Of a stretch of 64,000 nt of DNA, positions 31,715-49,986 are shown in pieces. A model generated the notes under the pieces. It did no database searches. It was not told where the DNA came from and was given only the letters and a program-made list of their open reading frames with translations. Source of the stretch: Escherichia coli (GTDB lineage Bacteria > Pseudomonadota > Gammaproteobacteria > Enterobacterales > Enterobacteriaceae); NCBI RefSeq assembly GCF_024502345.1, contig NZ_JALDNN010000001.1; one strand, given 5' to 3'. Each line of letters opens with the position of its first letter. The stretch's first letter is position 1. The position numbers and the translations under genes are program-made.

Positions 31715-31975
31715 ATACAACTCCTCTGTGAATCGGTTTAGTCAGAAGAAGCAAAAAGACACTTTACCGAAGGGTTTAACATTTTTTCGTGATACTCATC
31801 ACCATGACGCAAATGCGTTGCATAAATTTACCCACCAAAAGTGATGCAAATCACATAAATCACTCTTCATTCTGCAGGACTGCATAAAAGATGAGCCGAT
31901 TCAGGCAATGTGATTTGTTGCATGCTGACTATAGTTAACATTGCGCAACATTTTTATAAGGGTACGGAGAATACC

Positions 31976-32788
31976 ATGGCAACAACACAACAATCTGGAT
32001 TTGCACCTGCTGCATCGCCTCTCGCTTCGACCATCGTTCAGACCCCGGACGACGCGATTGTGGCGGGCTTCACCTCTATCCCTTCACAAGGGGATAACAT
32101 GCCTGCTTACCATGCCAGACCAAAGCAAAGCGATGGCCCACTGCCAGTGGTCATTGTAGTGCAGGAAATTTTTGGCGTGCATGAACATATCCGCGACATT
32201 TGTCGCCGTCTGGCGCTGGAGGGGTATCTGGCTATCGCACCTGAACTTTACTTCCGCGAAGGCGATCCGAATGATTTTGCCGATATCCCCACGTTGCTTA
32301 GCGGTCTGGTAGCAAAAGTGCCTGACTCGCAGGTGCTGGCCGATCTCGATCATGTCGCCAGTTGGGCTTCCCGCAACGGCGGCGATGTTCATCGTTTAAT
32401 GATCACCGGATTCTGCTGGGGTGGACGTATCACCTGGCTGTATGCCGCGCATAATCCACAGCTAAAAGCCGCAGTGGCGTGGTACGGCAAACTGACGGGC
32501 GACAAGTCGTTGAATTCACCGAAACAACCTGTTGATATCGCAACCGATCTTAACGCGCCGGTTCTCGGCTTATATGGCGGTCTGGATAACAGTATTCCGC
32601 AGGAGAGCGTTGAAACCATGCGCCAGGCGCTGCGGGCTGCTAATGCGAAAGCAGAGATTATCGTGTACCCGGATGCCGGGCATGCATTCAACGCTGATTA
32701 TCGCCCGAGCTATCATGCCGAATCTGCGAAAGATGGCTGGCAGCGTATGCTGGAATGGTTTAAGCAGTATGGTGGGAAGCGGAGTTAG
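31976..32788 (+). CDS. ysgA: dienelactone hydrolase-family protein YsgA
   Basis: ORF 31910..32788; the start is MATTQQSGF at 31976; alpha/beta hydrolase motif GFCWGG. Confidence 0.85.
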   Translation: MATTQQSGFAPAASPLASTIVQTPDDAIVAGFTSIPSQGDNMPAYHARPKQSDGPLPVVIVVQEIFGVHEHIRDICRRLALEGYLAIAPELYFREGDPNDFADIPTLLSGLVAKVPDSQVLADLDHVASWASRNGGDVHRLMITGFCWGGRITWLYAAHNPQLKAAVAWYGKLTGDKSLNSPKQPVDIATDLNAPVLGLYGGLDNSIPQESVETMRQALRAANAKAEIIVYPDAGHAFNADYRPSYHAESAKDGWQRMLEWFKQYGGKRS

Positions 32789-33181
32789 TTTCCTCTTAGT
32801 CTATATTTGAGATGGTGAGTGAACGAGTGCGTTTTGCTGCCATCTCTGTCCCCCAAAAAATAATCAGTATGAATTGATTGGAGATTACGACTCCGCTATT
32901 TGACCTTAAAAAAGTCGGCAAGTCATAGTCATAAATGAGTCTCTTCAATGGAAGACACCTTAGAGATTTACCATCAACTCCCATTCACAAACAAACATTA
33001 ATTATTATCAACACATTCACATTAATTATAAATCATCTCAGACCTTCCTGATAAAAAGATATTAAAGTGAAACATTTTGTTTTTCACATTTTAGTTCATC
33101 ACTTTTAGGCGTAAATAAAGGTAAAAAAAACAACAATACTATTTCTCTTTCACAAAAGAATTAACAAAAGGTTTTTCAAGG

Positions 33182-33657
33182 ATGAGTGATATTATTTACC
33201 TGACCATAACCGGAGAACAACAAGGATGTATTTCCTCTCGTTGTGGAACGAGCGCATCAATAGGTAATCGCTGGCAGATTGGCCATGATGATGAAATCTT
33301 CGCGTTCTCGCTCTCTAATAGTATTACGAATACAGGCAAAGGGTCATAATTGCATGGCCTTAGTTTCTGTAAATTGATTGACAAAAGCTCCCCGTTACTT
33401 ATTAACGCTATTAACAATAACGAGCAGTTGTTCATGGAGTTTGACTTCTATCGGATCAATAGGTTTGGTCGATGGGAGAAATATTACAACATTCAACTCC
33501 GCGGCGCGCTCTTATCAGCAATCAATCACCTGTTTACTGAGAACAATCTGGATACAGAAGCCATCACTGTCAGTTATGAATATATACTCTCCAGGCATCT
33601 GATTGCTAATACTGAATTTAGTTATTTGGCATTTCCCGATAACTACAACCGTCTGTT
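33182..33657 (+). pseudogene. Hcp-family (T6SS tube protein) domain, N-terminal part of a disrupted Hcp-fused toxin gene
   Basis: ATG at 33182 gives MSDIIYLTITGEQQG...; the frame hits TAA at 33347-33349 and resumes in the same frame with the Hcp-like stretch FCKLIDKSSPLL. The reading frame then runs into the IS903 end at 33658. Confidence 0.7.
33649..33657. repeat. IS903 target-site duplication, left copy (CCGTCTGTT)
   Basis: The identical 9-mer recurs at 34715-34723, immediately outside the two inverted repeats. Confidence 0.9.
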
Positions 33658-34714
33658 GGCTTTGTTGAATAAATCGAACTTTTGCTGAGTTGAAGGATCA
33701 GATCACGTATCTTCCCGACAACGCAGACCGTTCCGTGGCAAAGCAAAAGTTCAAAATCACCAACTGGCCCACCTACAATAAAGCCCTCATCAACCGTGGC
33801 TCCATAACTTTCTGGCTGGATGATGAAGCTATTCAGGCCTGGTATGAGTCAGCAACACCTTCTTCACGAGGCAGACCTCAGCGCTATTCTGACCTTGCCA
33901 TCACGACTGTGCTGGTCATTAAACGCGTATTCAGGCTGACCCTGCGCGCTGCGCAGGGCTTTATTGATTCCATTTTTTCTCTGATGAACGTTCCGCTACG
34001 CTGCCCGGATTACAGCTGTGTCAGCAGGCGGGCAAAGTCGGTTAATGTCAGTTTCAAAACGCCCACCCGGGGTGAAATCGCACACCTGGTAATTGATTCC
34101 ACCGGGCTGAAGGTCTTCGGTGAAGGCGAGTGGAAAGTCAAAAAGCATGGCCAGGAACGCCGCCGTATCTGGCGTAAGCTGCATCTCGCCGTTGACAGTA
34201 AAACACATGAAATCATCTGCGCTGACCTGTCGCTGAACAACGTTACGGACTCAGAGGCCTTCCCCGGGTTAATCCGGCAAACCCACCGGAAAATCAGGTC
34301 AGCCGCCGCCGATGGCGCTTACGATACCCGGCTATGTCACGATGAACTGCGGCGTAAGAAAATCAGCGCGCTTATCCCTCCCCGAAAAGGTGCGGGTTAC
34401 TGGCCCGGTGAATATGCAGACCGTAACCGTGCAGTGGCTAATCAGCGAATGACCGGGAGTAATGCGCGGTGGAAATGGACAACAGATTACAACCGTCGCT
34501 CGATAGCGGAAACGGCGATGTACCGGGTAAAACAGCTGTTCGGGGGTTCACTGACACTGCGTGACTACGATGGTCAGGTTGCAGAGGCTATGGCCCTGGT
34601 ACGAGCGCTGAACAAAATGACGAAAGCAGGTATGCCTGAAAGCGTGCGTATTGCCTGAAAACACAACCCGCTACGGGGGAGACTTACCCGAAATCTGATT
34701 TATTCAACAAAGCC
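33658..34714 (+). mobile_element. IS903-type insertion sequence (IS5 family), 1057 bp
   Basis: Terminal 18-bp inverted repeats GGCTTTGTTGAATAAATC (33658-33675, and reverse complement at 34697-34714); internal 322-aa ORF; flanked by a 9-bp direct repeat. Confidence 0.9.
33690..34658 (+). CDS. IS903-type DDE transposase
   Basis: 322-aa ORF matching my recollection of the IS903/IS102 transposase. Confidence 0.85.
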   Translation: MKDQITYLPDNADRSVAKQKFKITNWPTYNKALINRGSITFWLDDEAIQAWYESATPSSRGRPQRYSDLAITTVLVIKRVFRLTLRAAQGFIDSIFSLMNVPLRCPDYSCVSRRAKSVNVSFKTPTRGEIAHLVIDSTGLKVFGEGEWKVKKHGQERRRIWRKLHLAVDSKTHEIICADLSLNNVTDSEAFPGLIRQTHRKIRSAAADGAYDTRLCHDELRRKKISALIPPRKGAGYWPGEYADRNRAVANQRMTGSNARWKWTTDYNRRSIAETAMYRVKQLFGGSLTLRDYDGQVAEAMALVRALNKMTKAGMPESVRIA

Positions 34715-34723
34715 CCGTCTGTT
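34715..34723. repeat. IS903 target-site duplication, right copy (CCGTCTGTT)
   Basis: Exact 9-bp match to 33649-33657. Confidence 0.9.
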
Positions 34724-34753
34724 TATACCACGGCCAAAAACTAAAGCTGGTAA

Positions 34754-35395
34754 TGGTTCAAAACACTTAATAGTAAAGCGGTTGGCAGACTGCTTGCTGC
34801 TGGCGGCATATACAATGGGAATATCGAAGGATTCAGGGAAACAGCAGACAAGTTGGGGGGAGATGCACCTGCTGGTTACGATCAATTTATGGATAACAAA
34901 GGGTTACTCATCGCTGGTGCTTCAATAGTTGCTGGAGCAGTTCTGGGGAGAATGAGACTCCCTGATTTGGAATCACTTGAGCATTTCGGAGCCAGAGGAG
35001 CAGTATCAGGAAGACCATTTAATCCCGACCTTGCCGGTGGTCCAATAGAAAATCTGACGACAGATGGCGTAACAATCAACAGGGAAGGTATCGCTATTGT
35101 TGAAAAACACATAGCCAGATTTGGTCATGACCCTGTAAATGAAGTGATGATCAATAGACTGAAAGACATTGAGAAAGGAAAAATCCCCCCAGAACAAGTA
35201 GATCTTAACTTCTATACTCATGAGTGTCGGGAATATCAGCGTTACTGTAATCTTGGTTGGGAAACAGGACAACCTGATGGTGACGCAGGCTATGCACTCT
35301 GGAATCATACGCATACTGCTACTCTAGAAGATTATAAACTTAAGGGAGAACTTAATGACTTATACCACCAGGATGCACTTGACTATGATAACTGA
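34754..35395 (+). pseudogene. toxin-like C-terminal domain of the disrupted Hcp-fused gene (family not identified)
   Basis: Open frame of 213 codons after a stop at 34751; no ATG near its 5' end (the ORF track uses TTG at 34853). It begins with a Gly/Ala-rich linker (GRLLAAGGIYNGNIEGF...DKLGGDAPAGYDQF). It is in a different frame from the pre-insertion Hcp frame. Confidence 0.5.
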
Positions 35396-35630
35396 AACTG
35401 AAATTAACGTACTGAAAGTTATGGCTGAGAAAGATATAAACTGGAACTGGATGAATCTCGATCGCACACTATCCATAAGGCAAATTCCAGGATTCGGTAA
35501 TGTTGTTAACATTGTTAACAAATTAGCTAACGAGGGTTTGGTTATTATTGAGGATAGCGGACATAAGTCTATGCCTCACTACCACGTTACTGAAAAGGGA
35601 TACAATTTCGTGAAAAGTGAGAATAAATAA
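35355..35630 (+). CDS. putative cognate immunity protein (small cytoplasmic protein)
   Basis: 91-aa ORF with AAGGGAGAA Shine-Dalgarno 6 bp upstream of the ATG at 35355; overlaps the 3' end of the toxin-like ORF (alternative ATG at 35385 overlaps its TGA). Confidence 0.5.
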   Translation: MTYTTRMHLTMITETEINVLKVMAEKDINWNWMNLDRTLSIRQIPGFGNVVNIVNKLANEGLVIIEDSGHKSMPHYHVTEKGYNFVKSENK

Positions 35631-35777
35631 CGTAGCGTTGATTACTGAACAAATCGCTCAGGATTATATTTTGCGTAAAAATGATTCGGTTATTTCTGTA
35701 TCTGAACGGGCGCAGATAGCAAAATGGCTTCCGGTGATGGAAGCCATCAGATTATTGGCAAAGTGCGCGTTGTTCAT

Positions 35778-35818
35778 GCCGGATGCGGCGTGAACGCCTT
35801 GTCCGGCCAACAAAACTC
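35778..35818. repeat. REP element
   Basis: gccggatgcggcgtgaacgccttgtccggcc. Confidence 0.7.
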
Positions 35819-35914
35819 AAAAATTCAATAAATTGCATAAATTATGTAGGCCTGGTATCAGGCAGTTTTGCCTCTTTCATCGTACTGCAATTTACAGTGA
35901 CTCGTTAATATTCA

Positions 35915-38176
35915 TCATCCCCGACGCAAATTCTGCGCCGCCTGCACCATGTTCGCCAGTGCCGCGCGGGTTTCTGGCCAGCCGCGCGTTTTCAGGCCAC
36001 AGTCCGGGTTGACCCACAGGCGCTCTGCCGGAATGCGTTTTGCCGCTTTCTTCAGCAAGGCTTCAATCCATTCCACGCTCGGTACGTTTGGCGAGTGAAT
36101 GTCATAGACGCCTGGACCGATTTCATTCGGATAATCAAACTCTTCAAACGACTCCAGCAACTCCATGTCGGAACGCGAGGTTTCGATGGTGATGACGTCT
36201 GCATCCAGTGCCGCAATCGAATCCATGATGTCGTTGAACTCGCAATAACACATGTGAGTGTGGATTTGTGTGTCATCTTTCGCCACGGCGGCGTTGATAC
36301 GGAAGGCCTCCACGCCCCACTGGAGATATGCATCCCAGTCGCTACGACGCAGCGGTAAACCTTCGCGCAGCGCCGGTTCATCAATCTGGATGATGCCAAT
36401 TCCTGCGGCTTCCAGGTCCGCCACTTCATCACGCAGCGCCAGCGCAATTTGTTTGGCGATGGTTTCACGGCTGACATCTTCACGCGGGAACGACCAGCAG
36501 AGAATGGTCACCGGGCCAGTCAGCATCCCTTTCACCGGTTTATCAGTCAGAGATTGCGCATACTTCGCCCACTCCACGGTAATCGGTGCCGGGCGGCTAA
36601 TGTCACCAATGACAATCGGTGGCTTCACGCAGCGGGAACCGTAGCTCTGTACCCAACCGTTTTGCGTAAAGACAAATCCGTCGAGGTGCTCGCCAAAGTA
36701 TTCCACCATGTCATTACGCTCGGCCTCGCCATGTACCAGCACATCCAGTCCCAAACGTTCCTGTTCAACAATGGCCTGCTTGATATGTTCCGCAATGCCC
36801 GTGCGGTAGTTGTTGGCGTCGAGATTACCCTTTTTGAAATCCAGACGCAGGGTACGAATTTCCGTGGTTTGCGGGAAGGAACCAATCGTGGTGGTCGGCC
36901 ACGCTGGCAGTTTAAAACGCGCACGCTGGGCTTCGGCACGCACTTCATAGACATTCGCACGCTGGCTGTCCTGGGCGGTGATCGCCGCCAGACGCTTTTC
37001 TACTGCCGGGTTATGTACACGAGTAGAGTGACGACGCGCCTGAATTGGAGCGCTCCACTCTGCCAGAGCTGCCGTATCACCACTGTTCAGCGCATCTCGC
37101 AGCAGTGCCAGTTCATGACATTTTTGCAGGGCGAAGGCAAACCAGCTTTTCACTTCTGCATCAAGACGCGTTTCCACGCTCAGGTCGATGGGGCTGTGCA
37201 GCAACGAGCAGGAAGATGCCACCCACAAATCACGTTTGCCGACAATGTCCTTAATTTGCGCATATTTCTCAGTAAGATCGGCGCGCCAGACGTTACGACC
37301 ATTGATCAGACCCGCAGACAGCAGCCAGTCAGAAGGCAGGCGCTTGTGCAGTTCAACAACGTCATCTTTACCATGTACAAGGTCCACATGCAGCCCCTGA
37401 ACAGGCAGCGCAGTAATCGTGTCGAGATTTGGCGTTACGCCTTCAAAATAGGTGGTCAGCAGCAGTTTCACCTGTCCCTGGAGCGCGTCGTAAGCGGGTT
37501 TGTATGCGTCCAGCCACGCCTGTGGTAGTTCCAGTACCAGCGCGGGTTCATCAATCTGTACCCACTCGATGCCGCGTTTCGCCAGTTCTGCCAGCACTTG
37601 CTGATAAACCGGCAGAATGTCGTTCAGCAGGCTAAGGCGGTCAAACTGTTCACCTTTCACTTTCCCCAGCCACAGGTAAGTAACCGGCCCCAGCAGCACA
37701 GGCTTAACGTTGTGGCCCAGCGCCAGCGCCTCGTCCACTTCCTCCAGCAGCTGCGTCCAGGTCAGTTTGAACTGTTGGCCTTTAACGAACTCCGGCACCA
37801 TGTAGTGATAGTTGGTGTTAAACCATTTGGTCATTTCCGCTGCCGCCGCAGGTTCGCCAGTCGGCGCACGTCCACGACCAATACGGAACAGGGTGTCGAT
37901 ATCTACCGAACCGTCTTTGTTCTGATGACGTGGCGGAACATTACCCAGCAGCAAACTGGTGGTCAGTACATGATCGTACCAGGCAAAATCGCCCACCGGC
38001 AGCAGGTCGATACCCGCTTGCTTTTGTTGATCCCAGTGACGAGCACGCAGTTCACGCCCTACTGTCAGCAGTTCTTCACGCGTGGAGTTCCCCGCCCAAT
38101 AACTTTCTTGCGCTTTTTTCAGCTCGCGACGCAGGCCAACGCGAGGGAAACCGAGGGTGTGATTCAATATTGTCAT
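35915..38176 (-). CDS. metE: cobalamin-independent methionine synthase
   Basis: 753 aa, begins [30 protein letters not shown]. Confidence 0.95.
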
Positions 38177-49218: not shown

Positions 49219-49233
49219 GGTAATGACTCCAAC

Positions 49234-49737
49234 TTATTGATAGTGTTTTATGTTCAGATAATGCCCGATGACTTTGTCATGCAGCTCCACCGATTTTGAG
49301 AACGACAGCGACTTCCGTCCCAGCCGTGCCAGGTGCTGCCTCAGATTCAGGTTATGCCGCTCAATTCGCTGCGTATATCGCTTGCTGATTACGTGCAGCT
49401 TTCCCTTCAGGCGGGATTCATACAGCGGCCAGCCATCCGTCATCCATATCACCACGTCAAAGGGTGACAGCAGGCTCATAAGACGCCCCAGCGTCGCCAT
49501 AGTGCGTTCACCGAATACGTGCGCAACAACCGTCTTCCGGAGCCTGTCATACGCGTAAAACAGCCAGCGCTGGCGCGATTTAGCCCCGACGTATCCCCAC
49601 TGTTCGTCCATTTCCGCGCAGACGATGACGTCACTGCCCGGCTGTATGCGCGAGGTTACCGACTGCGGCCTGAGTTTTTTAAATGGCGGAAAATCGTGTT
49701 GAGGCCAACGCCCATAATGCGGGCGGTTGCCCGGCAT
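49234..49737 (-). CDS. insB: IS1 transposase InsB reading frame
   Basis: 167 aa, begins [16 protein letters not shown]. Confidence 0.9.
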
Positions 49738-49931
49738 CCAACGCCATTCATGGCCATATCAATGATTTTCTGGTGCGTACCGGGTTGAGAAGCGGTGTAA
49801 GTGAACTGCAGTTGCCATGTTTTACGGCAGTGAGAGCAGAGATAGCGCTGATGTCCGGCGGTGCTTTTGCCGTTACGCACCACCCCGTCAGTAGCTGAAC
49901 AGGAGGGACAGCTGATAGAAACAGAAGCCAC
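49656..49931 (-). CDS. insA: IS1 InsA
   Basis: 91 aa, begins [42 protein letters not shown]. Confidence 0.9.
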
Positions 49932-49986
49932 TGGAGCACCTCAAAAACACCATCATACACTAAATCAGTAAGTTGGCAGCATCACC

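Follow-up and report, generated by a model that had tools for sequence, protein, structure and literature searches.

A degraded, probable Hcp-fused effector gene and its candidate immunity gene between ysgA and metE of Escherichia coli

Results

An Islet between ysgA and metE

The window analysed here is a stretch of 64,000 nucleotides of Escherichia coli DNA in which two housekeeping genes, ysgA and metE, flank a variable islet of 3.14 kb (32780..35918, 3139 bp; stranded features are all on the plus strand). Its borders are set by K-12 homology, which breaks at 32779 and restarts at 35919. In K-12 MG1655, 39 bp lie between the 3′ end of metE and that of ysgA, which bears out an earlier note on this DNA that described the two genes as close neighbors and remarked on the roughly 3.1 kb between them here; the islet stands in place of the 39-bp K-12 intergenic hairpin and the final codons of both genes. 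When IS903B and one copy of its target duplication are subtracted, 2073 bp remain, and this sequence is 100% identical to that of E. coli FDAARGOS_943. The nearest complete E. coli genomes match the left flank at 99.4% identity and the right flank at about 98.5%. In the collinear reference regions spanning the window, no core genes of a type VI secretion system (T6SS) are annotated, in agreement with the same note. Between the candidate immunity gene and metE lies a palindromic element read from the sequence, GCCGGATGCGGCGTGAACGCCTTGTCCGGCC (35778..35808), which we take to be REP-like by E. coli REP consensus sequences.

A Disrupted Gene for a Probable Hcp Effector

The islet carries an Hcp-family gene (hcp-ET) that starts at the ATG at 33182, and its 5′ part (33182..33657) encodes an Hcp (TssD) tube-protein domain and the beginning of a linker, as far as the IS insertion point. 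The Hcp domain that had been proposed to begin at 33182 was recognized by both profiles searched: Pfam T6SS_HCP (PF05638) matches the read-through translation from 33182 with an i-E of 8.9e-14, and TIGR03344, with a cut-off of 58.9 bits, gives the intact allele 126 bits over residues 1–147. At the same position in other genomes, PGAP annotates tssD pseudogenes.

Three lesions break the reading frame, and each of those that the earlier note had listed is real: an in-frame TAA, an IS903 insertion and a frame break. Codon 56, a CAA (Gln) in intact alleles, is a TAA nonsense codon in the window (33347..33349); this is the oldest lesion and is shared with FDAARGOS_943 and the O103 strain ML775. The second is a −1 frameshift in the effector linker (34724..34954), where, relative to ML775, a single T has been lost from a TTT run (TTT to TT, about 34754–34756, placed at about 34756). 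The linker also contains a conserved Gly/Ala-rich hydrophobic segment, GLLIAGASIVAGAVLG (34901–34948), and is conserved among non-Hcp carriers of about 350 aa. The third lesion is the IS903B element at 33658..34714. The order of inactivation is the change of Gln56 to TAA, then the −1 frameshift in the T run, then IS903B; the window copy of the effector is a pseudogene from which production of the toxin is impossible.

The inserted element has the traits of IS903B, a member of the IS5 family: it is 1057 bp long, is 100% identical to annotated IS903B copies, and encodes an IS5-family DDE transposase (307 aa, GTG at 33735 to 34658; NF033579, 6e-107). Its terminal inverted repeats are imperfect, with 17 of the first 20 bases matching and the first 17 identical, and it is flanked by a 9-bp target duplication, CCGTCTGTT, at 33649–33657 and 34715–34723. 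None of 5,426 complete E. coli genomes has IS903B at this site; the insertion is strain-specific.

The Predicted C-Terminal Toxin Domain

Behind the Hcp domain the effector has a C-terminal extension of about 235 aa, above the minimum of 120 aa set for a domain. Its last 146 aa, followed by a TGA stop, form a putative toxin domain (34955..35395). The toxin-like frame ending at 35395 that the earlier note had opened at 34754 holds up with a small correction; it is placed at 34757–35395 and is uninterrupted within itself. The domain finds 121 matches in AFDB50. Alignment shows nine invariant residues (H52, R55, H89, E90, E93, R96, Y97, W116 and H120, in domain numbering). The AlphaFold2 (AF2) model is all-alpha, with a pLDDT of 89.8. 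No Pfam family matches the domain at E ≤ 10; searches of NCBIfam, PADLOC and PHROGs returned no match to it, NCBIfam detecting only the Hcp part, and sequence searches of the PDB, run both from one sequence and from a profile, likewise returned none.

The same 146 aa recur behind other carriers: the domain is fused to Hcp, to DUF8093-type carriers, to PAAR, to RHS and to a PT-TG-like N-terminus. Many S-type bacteriocins end in it, behind a Pyocin_S domain, and cyanobacteria encode it as stand-alone proteins of 136 aa. Judged by these relatives, it is polymorphic-toxin-like. Two named effectors were considered as counterparts and set aside: T6EC4 of Citrobacter koseri (Geller et al., PMC11148199) is Tox-REase-5-like and not all-alpha, and Hcp-ET1 carries a Pfam HNH domain, with an immunity protein, ETI1, that is apparently larger than the one described below.

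A Small Overlapping Gene Downstream

A small intact open reading frame overlaps the end of the toxin gene. The earlier note had read it from 35355 to 35630, behind a ribosome-binding site, and both features are present: this start gives 91 aa and follows the Shine-Dalgarno sequence AAGGGAG at 35342–35348. Family-wide alignment and PGAP favor the ATG at 35385, which gives 81 aa (35385..35630), while other annotators use the 91-aa form. An AF2 model of a fusion of toxin, Gly-Ser linker and small protein, a proxy for the complex without PAE, reached a pTM of 0.62, a value that falls short of demonstrating a complex.

The position of this gene is reproduced well beyond the window. Its small homologues run across the stop codon of the toxin gene in E. 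coli variants, Pantoea, Citrobacter and Phytobacter, and do so under an unrelated carrier. A motif scan across species-representative genomes covered 37 loci, and in 32 of them an ORF of 85–100 aa lay between −20 and +19 nt from the stop of the toxin; toxins of the window clade were paired with the window ORF family in all three cases, and 29 toxins of the bacteriocin clade with a second family. The two families (type A in the window, type B in the bacteriocin clade) align with an hhalign probability of 55%. The small gene and the variable C-terminal third of the toxin vary together, and intact variant loci carry a cognate and an orphan copy in tandem. By synteny, homologues of the gene stand directly 3′ of the same toxin clade under other carriers, in the arrangement of toxin and cognate immunity gene that the earlier note suggested, and the small ORF is very probably the toxin's cognate immunity gene. 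The alternative of an unrelated housekeeping locus fails, since the 34754 frame and the small ORF make a toxin/immunity-like pair under several delivery domains.

Intact Alleles and Distribution

Of the 5,426 complete genomes of E. coli, 848, about one in six, carry the hcp-ET gene, so most of them lack the interval. The intact allele that had been sought in the ysgA-metE interval of other strains exists in several: PCN033 and TUM14759 have one of 382 aa (WP_001280045.1), in which the toxin domain takes up residues of about 237–382, and AR_0015 has a variant of 377 aa, all of them at this position. In the extraintestinal pathogenic (ExPEC) strain PCN033 the 382-aa allele is known as hcp3; its sequence agrees at 100% with the intact 1149-bp allele of TUM14759 and at 98.3% with the window sequence without the IS. 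In one genome the toxin has been lost by an IS1-associated deletion and the immunity gene alone is kept.

Discussion

It seems likely that the islet is a degraded, orphan module of a specialized Hcp effector, of the kind called Hcp-ET, together with its immunity gene. In a live allele, the intact N-terminal Hcp domain would be built into a T6SS tube encoded elsewhere in the genome, and the C-terminal extension, consisting of about 75 aa of linker with a predicted hydrophobic, Gly-rich helix and then the 146-aa all-alpha toxin domain, would be fired into neighboring bacteria. The producing cell should be protected by the downstream winged-helix protein, which we suppose binds and blocks the toxin. 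If it is expressed, the immunity gene of the window could still protect its host against relatives that carry a live allele.

What the toxin does can be approached through its relatives. Since the domain ends many S-type bacteriocins, it may be of the pyocin G/SX2/carocin D type, an assignment judged from indirect likeness rather than from the sequences of those proteins. By description (PMC7322526, PMC10422930), pyocin G (ETV05907.1), SX2 (EHF11209.1), carocin D (ADH95192.1) and carocin S3 share with the window a domain of about 145 aa with no Pfam family or structural relative, and behind it an immunity gene of about 87 aa that in many cases overlaps by 1 nt; moreover, the Pseudomonas and Pectobacterium relatives of the window domain end S-type bacteriocins behind Pyocin_S. 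The window differs in that its carrier is Hcp and not a receptor-binding bacteriocin, and in having an immunity protein of type A where the bacteriocin clade has type B. Because the Pyocin_S domain behind which the toxin stands serves inner-membrane translocation, the target is most likely cytoplasmic; it is probably nucleic acid or the translation apparatus. We propose tentatively, with slightly more doubt than belief, that the domain is a structurally new all-alpha cytotoxic fold with an invariant His/His-Glu/His cluster, lacking a Pfam family or PDB relative, common to Hcp, PAAR and Rhs effectors and S-type bacteriocins, and neutralized by small winged-helix proteins that fall into two families of distant kinship.

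Other identities for the two proteins deserve consideration. We give very little credence to the idea of an HNH (His-Me finger) DNase toxin identical to that of the published Hcp-ET1. PGAP does name fragments of the toxin "HNH endonuclease" or "colicin," and a review table places carocin D, a possible relative, in the His-Me finger superfamily (PMC9990079). These product names are unsupported, however, because the domain has no Pfam match, an all-alpha predicted fold and no match in the PDB: at E ≤ 10 neither PF01844, PF12639 nor any related family appears, whereas Hcp-ET1 carries PF01844 (PMC9990079), NCBIfam recognizes only the Hcp part, and the confident AF2 model offers no beta-beta-alpha motif around a catalytic His. 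As a weaker point, O104:H4 and 55989, hosts of Hcp-ET1, are absent among the best 60 of the 848 carriers and a spread of 60. For the small ORF, a role as a MarR/PadR-like transcriptional regulator of the module would account for its predicted winged-helix fold, in which three helices are followed by a beta hairpin and a further helix (helix-helix-helix-strand-strand-helix, pLDDT 90–98), for profile matches to PadR and MarR structures (E 2e-4 to 1e-2), for weak Pfam matches to HTH_45 and EarA, and for the name "MarR family transcriptional regulator" in some NCBI records. Yet the ORF in every case adjoins the 3′ end of the toxin gene or runs into it, no matter which carrier forms the N-terminus, it switches with the toxin clade, and it exists in tandem orphan copies; this combination is the signature of an immunity gene and not of a regulator. 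At 81 aa the protein also lacks the MarR dimerization helices, and a regulatory role is very improbable in our view.

Whether selection has kept the immunity gene is a separate matter. The earlier note saw in the islet an orphan immunity gene retained while its toxin decays, and of this the observable half stands: the ORF is intact and the toxin is dead. Retention by selection does not follow from it. Three lesions in 1149 bp lead one to expect about 0.64 in 246 bp, with a probability of about 0.5 of seeing none, so that the intactness of the 246-bp ORF is statistically uninformative. The islet may then be neutral debris, its immunity ORF intact through shortness and recent decay, unexpressed, and conferring nothing on its host; we regard this as a serious possibility while leaning against it. 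Across the sampled loci the toxin gene has been disrupted about 8 times independently and the 81-aa gene not once, where about 1.7 disruptions would be expected (probability of none, about 0.18), and a scan between the IS and the immunity gene found no promoter-like site. Against neutrality, the 81-aa gene is still intact, as an orphan, in the genome from which the toxin has been deleted, it is intact as the second gene of a tandem in B2/D strains, and its exact sequence occurs on at least 1000 contigs. The dN/dS of immunity alleles is below 1, at 0.24–0.52, a range that rests on very few sites.

Modules of the kind that we favor for the islet have been described in Enterobacteriaceae. As summarized in later papers (PMC6730261, PMC9990079), the Hcp-ET effectors of Ma et al. 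(2017, Virulence 8:1189) comprise ET1 (HNH), ET2 (DUF2235/Tle1), ET3 ("pyocin S3") and ET4 (colicin DNase), and orphan immunity genes have been reported for modules of this kind. The window locus resembles them in its N-terminal Hcp, its C-terminal toxin extension, the immunity gene directly downstream and a location away from the T6SS cluster. It differs in that its immunity gene encodes an 81-aa winged-helix protein, in that the window copy is a pseudogene, and in its toxin, which, having no Pfam match, falls outside the types ET1–ET4 as they are summarized there.

The closest counterpart is hcp3 of PCN033, which is this very gene in an identical position between ysgA and metE, with an intact ORF where the window allele is broken by three lesions. 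It was described by Peng et al. (2016, PMC4882540) as a gene of 1149 bp, far from the T6SS cluster, whose second half was without homology; its deletion did not reduce killing of K-12, a result that tells against our reading, and affected host-cell phenotypes instead, and Hcp3 was treated as an Hcp paralogue acting in invasion and colonization, its toxin and immunity gene going unrecognized. Our reading would recast the published Hcp3 as part of a toxin-immunity module. It would likewise correct the database labels "Colicin," "HNH endonuclease" and "MarR regulator," which appear to name pieces of a single Hcp-fused effector and its immunity gene.

The window locus itself is of little weight, being a common pseudogene that PGAP has already annotated piecemeal. 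Found in about one-sixth of E. coli genomes, the islet is ordinary apart from its toxin domain, which is widespread and has neither a family annotation nor a solved structure. Should the domain be of the pyocin G/SX2/carocin D type, the activities published for that type conflict, DNase being reported for carocins and, for SX2, inhibition of translation with no DNase; the E. coli Hcp version and its 81-aa partner would be a convenient pair with which to settle the question.

E. coli harbors live alleles beside dead ones, as well as orphan immunity genes, which makes the species a natural system for the study of orphan-immunity protection. Comparable situations are known from the orphan immunity genes and arrays of T6SS, Rhs and CDI loci (for example, Kirchberger et al. 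2017, as presented in PMC6730261), where, as in the window, an intact immunity gene lies beside a dead or missing toxin and, as in related strains of the window, cognate and orphan copies stand in tandem. The arrays presented there belong to a different setting from that of the window locus, which consists of two genes in an islet between housekeeping genes, outside any T6SS auxiliary cluster.

The ysgA–metE Interval

The interval between ysgA (31910-32788, plus strand) and metE (35915-38176, minus strand) contains a decayed Hcp-fused T6SS effector gene with a probable immunity gene downstream, a feature of a known kind. Homology to K-12 ends at 32779 and starts again at 35919, and the window thus carries about 3.14 kb of extra DNA where the 3′ ends of the two genes in K-12 MG1655 are separated by a hairpin-containing 39 bp; the unusual spacing remarked on in an earlier note is therefore real. 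The site is a known polymorphic one, and its contents are already annotated piecemeal in RefSeq. The final codons of both flanking genes differ from those of K-12: at 32779-32788 the YsgA C-terminus reads GGKRS* rather than GGKKSL*, and at 35915-35919 the islet alters the metE stop codon. The K-12 hairpin, which looks like a bidirectional terminator, is lost through the islet.

The remainder of the window is ordinary, collinear E. coli backbone (polA, an rRNA operon, fadBA, the tat and ubi genes, and on to metR, recQ, corA, uvrD, and cyaA). No T6SS core genes are annotated in the reference regions that match the window, in keeping with what had been said of the 64 kb. The sole other window-specific segment, 768 bp at 49219-49986 near the rarD-corA region, is missing from OkiPb01688 and no107, reference strains that are collinear with the window, and its size fits that of an IS1.

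Three Lesions in the Effector Gene

Read through its stop, the open reading frame that begins at ATG 33182 matches Pfam T6SS_HCP (i-E 8.9e-14), and the intact allele scores 126 bits against TIGR03344 (cut-off 58.9), as expected from the Hcp-family N-terminus recognized at the outset. The three lesions described for the gene were all found. Codon 56 is TAA (33347-33349), where intact alleles have CAA. An insertion of 1057 bp (33658-34714) is flanked on both sides by a perfect 9-bp duplication, CCGTCTGTT; the first 20 bases of its terminal inverted repeats match at 17 positions, the first 17 being identical, its transposase belongs to the IS5 family (NF033579, 6e-107), and annotated IS903B copies match it at 100% identity. 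When the element and one copy of the duplication were deleted in silico, the reading frame was still broken, one T being missing from a TTT run at about 34756 relative to strain ML775. The shifted frame, the toxin-like frame of the earlier note, is open from 34757 up to a TGA at 35393-35395.

Between the Hcp and toxin domains, the linker (34757-34954) holds a Gly/Ala-rich hydrophobic helix, GLLIAGASIVAGAVLG, at 34901-34948. Carriers of about 350 aa that lack Hcp, from Pantoea, Klebsiella, and Cronobacter, have a conserved version of this linker (about 75 aa), and in bacteriocins its place is taken by a Pyocin_S domain; the linker could be an alternative module for membrane entry.

The Toxin Domain

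For the C-terminal 146 aa, Pfam gives no match even at E ≤ 10, none of NCBIfam, PADLOC, and PHROG has a family, and PDB contains no sequence relative. The PGAP names "HNH endonuclease" and "colicin" are supported by none of these tests. Homologues of the domain are nevertheless numerous (282 and 599 proteins in separate searches) and are joined to varied N-terminal carriers: Hcp in E. coli and Salmonella bongori; proteins of about 350 aa, some annotated PF26362 or DUF8093, in Pantoea, Klebsiella, Cronobacter, Citrobacter, and Phytobacter; PAAR and RHS proteins; a PT-TG-like N-terminus; and, most commonly, Pyocin_S (PF06958) bacteriocins of 580-840 aa in Serratia, Salmonella, Klebsiella, Erwinia, Morganella, Pseudomonas, and Pectobacterium. 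Microcoleus and other filamentous cyanobacteria encode it as a stand-alone protein of 136-137 aa (P0170-P0200). Far outside Enterobacterales, the domain ends a 744-aa protein of the flavobacterium Kordia jejudonensis. A Serratia plymuthica locus (L012 1-3361) is an array of toxin-immunity modules, in which three bacteriocin-like ORFs stand one after another, each with an immunity-like gene (87-90 aa, KGPNWK...EKKYGIE family) behind it. One of these ORFs is cut by the end of the locus and has no Pfam match on record; the other two are short Pyocin_S proteins, and the toxin domain is confirmed only in the last (P0110).

Invariant residues of the domain include H52, R55, H89, E90, E93, R96, Y97, W116, and H120, possibly forming a metal or catalytic site. 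From the position of the domain behind the Pyocin_S inner-membrane translocation domain of bacteriocins, we infer that the target is cytoplasmic. Pfam models exist for every other cytotoxic type among the pyocins, and by elimination the domain may be of the pyocin G/SX2/carocin D type. Consistent with this assignment are the occurrence of the domain in proteins of P. aeruginosa and Pectobacterium carotovorum, a size of about 145 aa, and an immunity gene of about 87 aa with a 1-nt overlap. DNase activity is reported for carocins; SX2 has no DNase activity and inhibits translation, and its authors found its predicted structure to be like no known bacteriocin domain (PMC7322526, PMC10422930). The toxin domain and its winged-helix partner, which have neither an annotated family nor a solved structure, are the sole unusual aspect of the islet.

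The Candidate Immunity Gene

The small ORF overlaps the end of the toxin gene and stops at 35630. It is intact, and a good Shine-Dalgarno sequence (AAGGGAG, 35342-35348) precedes ATG 35355, which gives the 91-aa form called by other annotators; PGAP chose ATG 35385 (81 aa), the position at which homologues also start and which they favor. Its family is small, with 44 clusters (50% identity) in a set of 1.84 billion representatives. Throughout the window's toxin clade (marked by an "NLGWETG" loop), a homologue lies directly downstream of the toxin in every case, at 62% identity in E. coli variant loci, 55% in Pantoea, and 34% behind an unrelated carrier; in a species-wide motif scan, 3 of 3 toxins of this clade (Pantoea agglomerans, Citrobacter freundii, and Phytobacter ursingii) were paired with such a homologue. 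The same position in 29 loci of the bacteriocin clade is occupied by another family, of 85-100 aa, whose members end in KGPNWKxPxFVTEKKYGIE. Profile comparison (hhalign probability 55%, E 1e-4) points to a possible distant relationship between the two families.

The NCBI name "MarR family transcriptional regulator" reflects the predicted winged-helix fold (AF2, pLDDT 90-98) and the profile's weak matches to PadR and MarR structures. The small ORF, however, overlaps the toxin stop at a constant position, is paired with a toxin clade, varies together with the toxin's variable C-terminal third, and occurs as tandem orphan copies, and these are marks of immunity genes, not regulators. Judged by its sequence and setting, it is very likely the cognate immunity gene. 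Together with the Hcp profile match, the synteny in the toxin clade bears out the effector-immunity architecture proposed earlier, and both the observation and its interpretation were essentially right. A fused AF2 prediction of toxin and candidate immunity protein gave a pTM of 0.62, which does not establish a complex.

Alleles and Retention

The gene is carried by 848 of 5,426 complete E. coli genomes, chromosomally in all, and the interval is thus not universal in the species. Without its IS, the islet is 100% identical to that of E. coli FDAARGOS_943, TAA and frameshift included; ML775 (O103) has the TAA and lacks the frameshift, and IS903B was found at this site in none of the complete genomes searched. 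This sharing implies the order nonsense mutation, frameshift, IS insertion. Intact alleles do occur in the same interval of other strains. Among the sampled loci, a 382-aa allele with the 81-aa ORF is present in TUM14759, PCN033, and about 35 more at 99.9-100% identity; the allele in PCN033 corresponds to the published hcp3, which is 1149 bp long and distant from the T6SS cluster (PMC4882540). An intact 377-aa variant, followed by its own 85-aa ORF and then a second, 81-aa ORF, is found in AR_0015 and FDAARGOS_448; ABU 83972 and SF-468 carry this variant with a Trp-to-stop change, and several strains have IS2 or IS3 insertions. At least 1000 public contigs carry the window's 180-aa "colicin" fragment in identical form, and the same lower bound holds for each of the two intact alleles and of the small proteins; Shigella records are among them.

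In ABU 83972 and AR_0015 (L003 3631-4208; L017 2631-3208), the first of the tandem immunity-like genes (85 aa) overlaps the toxin stop, and the second (81 aa, GTG start) is 88% identical to the window's ORF and has the look of an orphan that stayed behind when the C-terminal end of the toxin was replaced. CFSAN061768 has lost the toxin and a portion of its first small ORF to an IS1-associated deletion, and its second, 81-aa ORF is intact. In that locus (L016 3240-3745) IS1 adjoins ysgA, and the annotation calls the truncated first gene a partial MarR regulator.

The earlier note suggested that the intact ORF would fit retention of an orphan immunity gene while the toxin decays. The ORF is indeed intact, but the contrast within the window (0 lesions in 246 bp versus 3 in 1149 bp of toxin gene) is unremarkable (P ~0.5). 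Across the sampled loci there are about 8 independent toxin disruptions versus 0 in the 81-aa gene (P ~0.18), and dN/dS among immunity alleles is 0.24-0.52, from a handful of sites. A promoter scan found no promoter-like site between IS903B and the small ORF. Selective retention is plausible and consistent with the immunity-only genome CFSAN061768.

A 58-aa ORF (35617-35793) follows the immunity gene; it has no NCBIfam or PADLOC family and is annotated in FDAARGOS_943 as a hypothetical protein. Its 3′ end enters a palindrome at 35778-35808, which we take to be REP-like.
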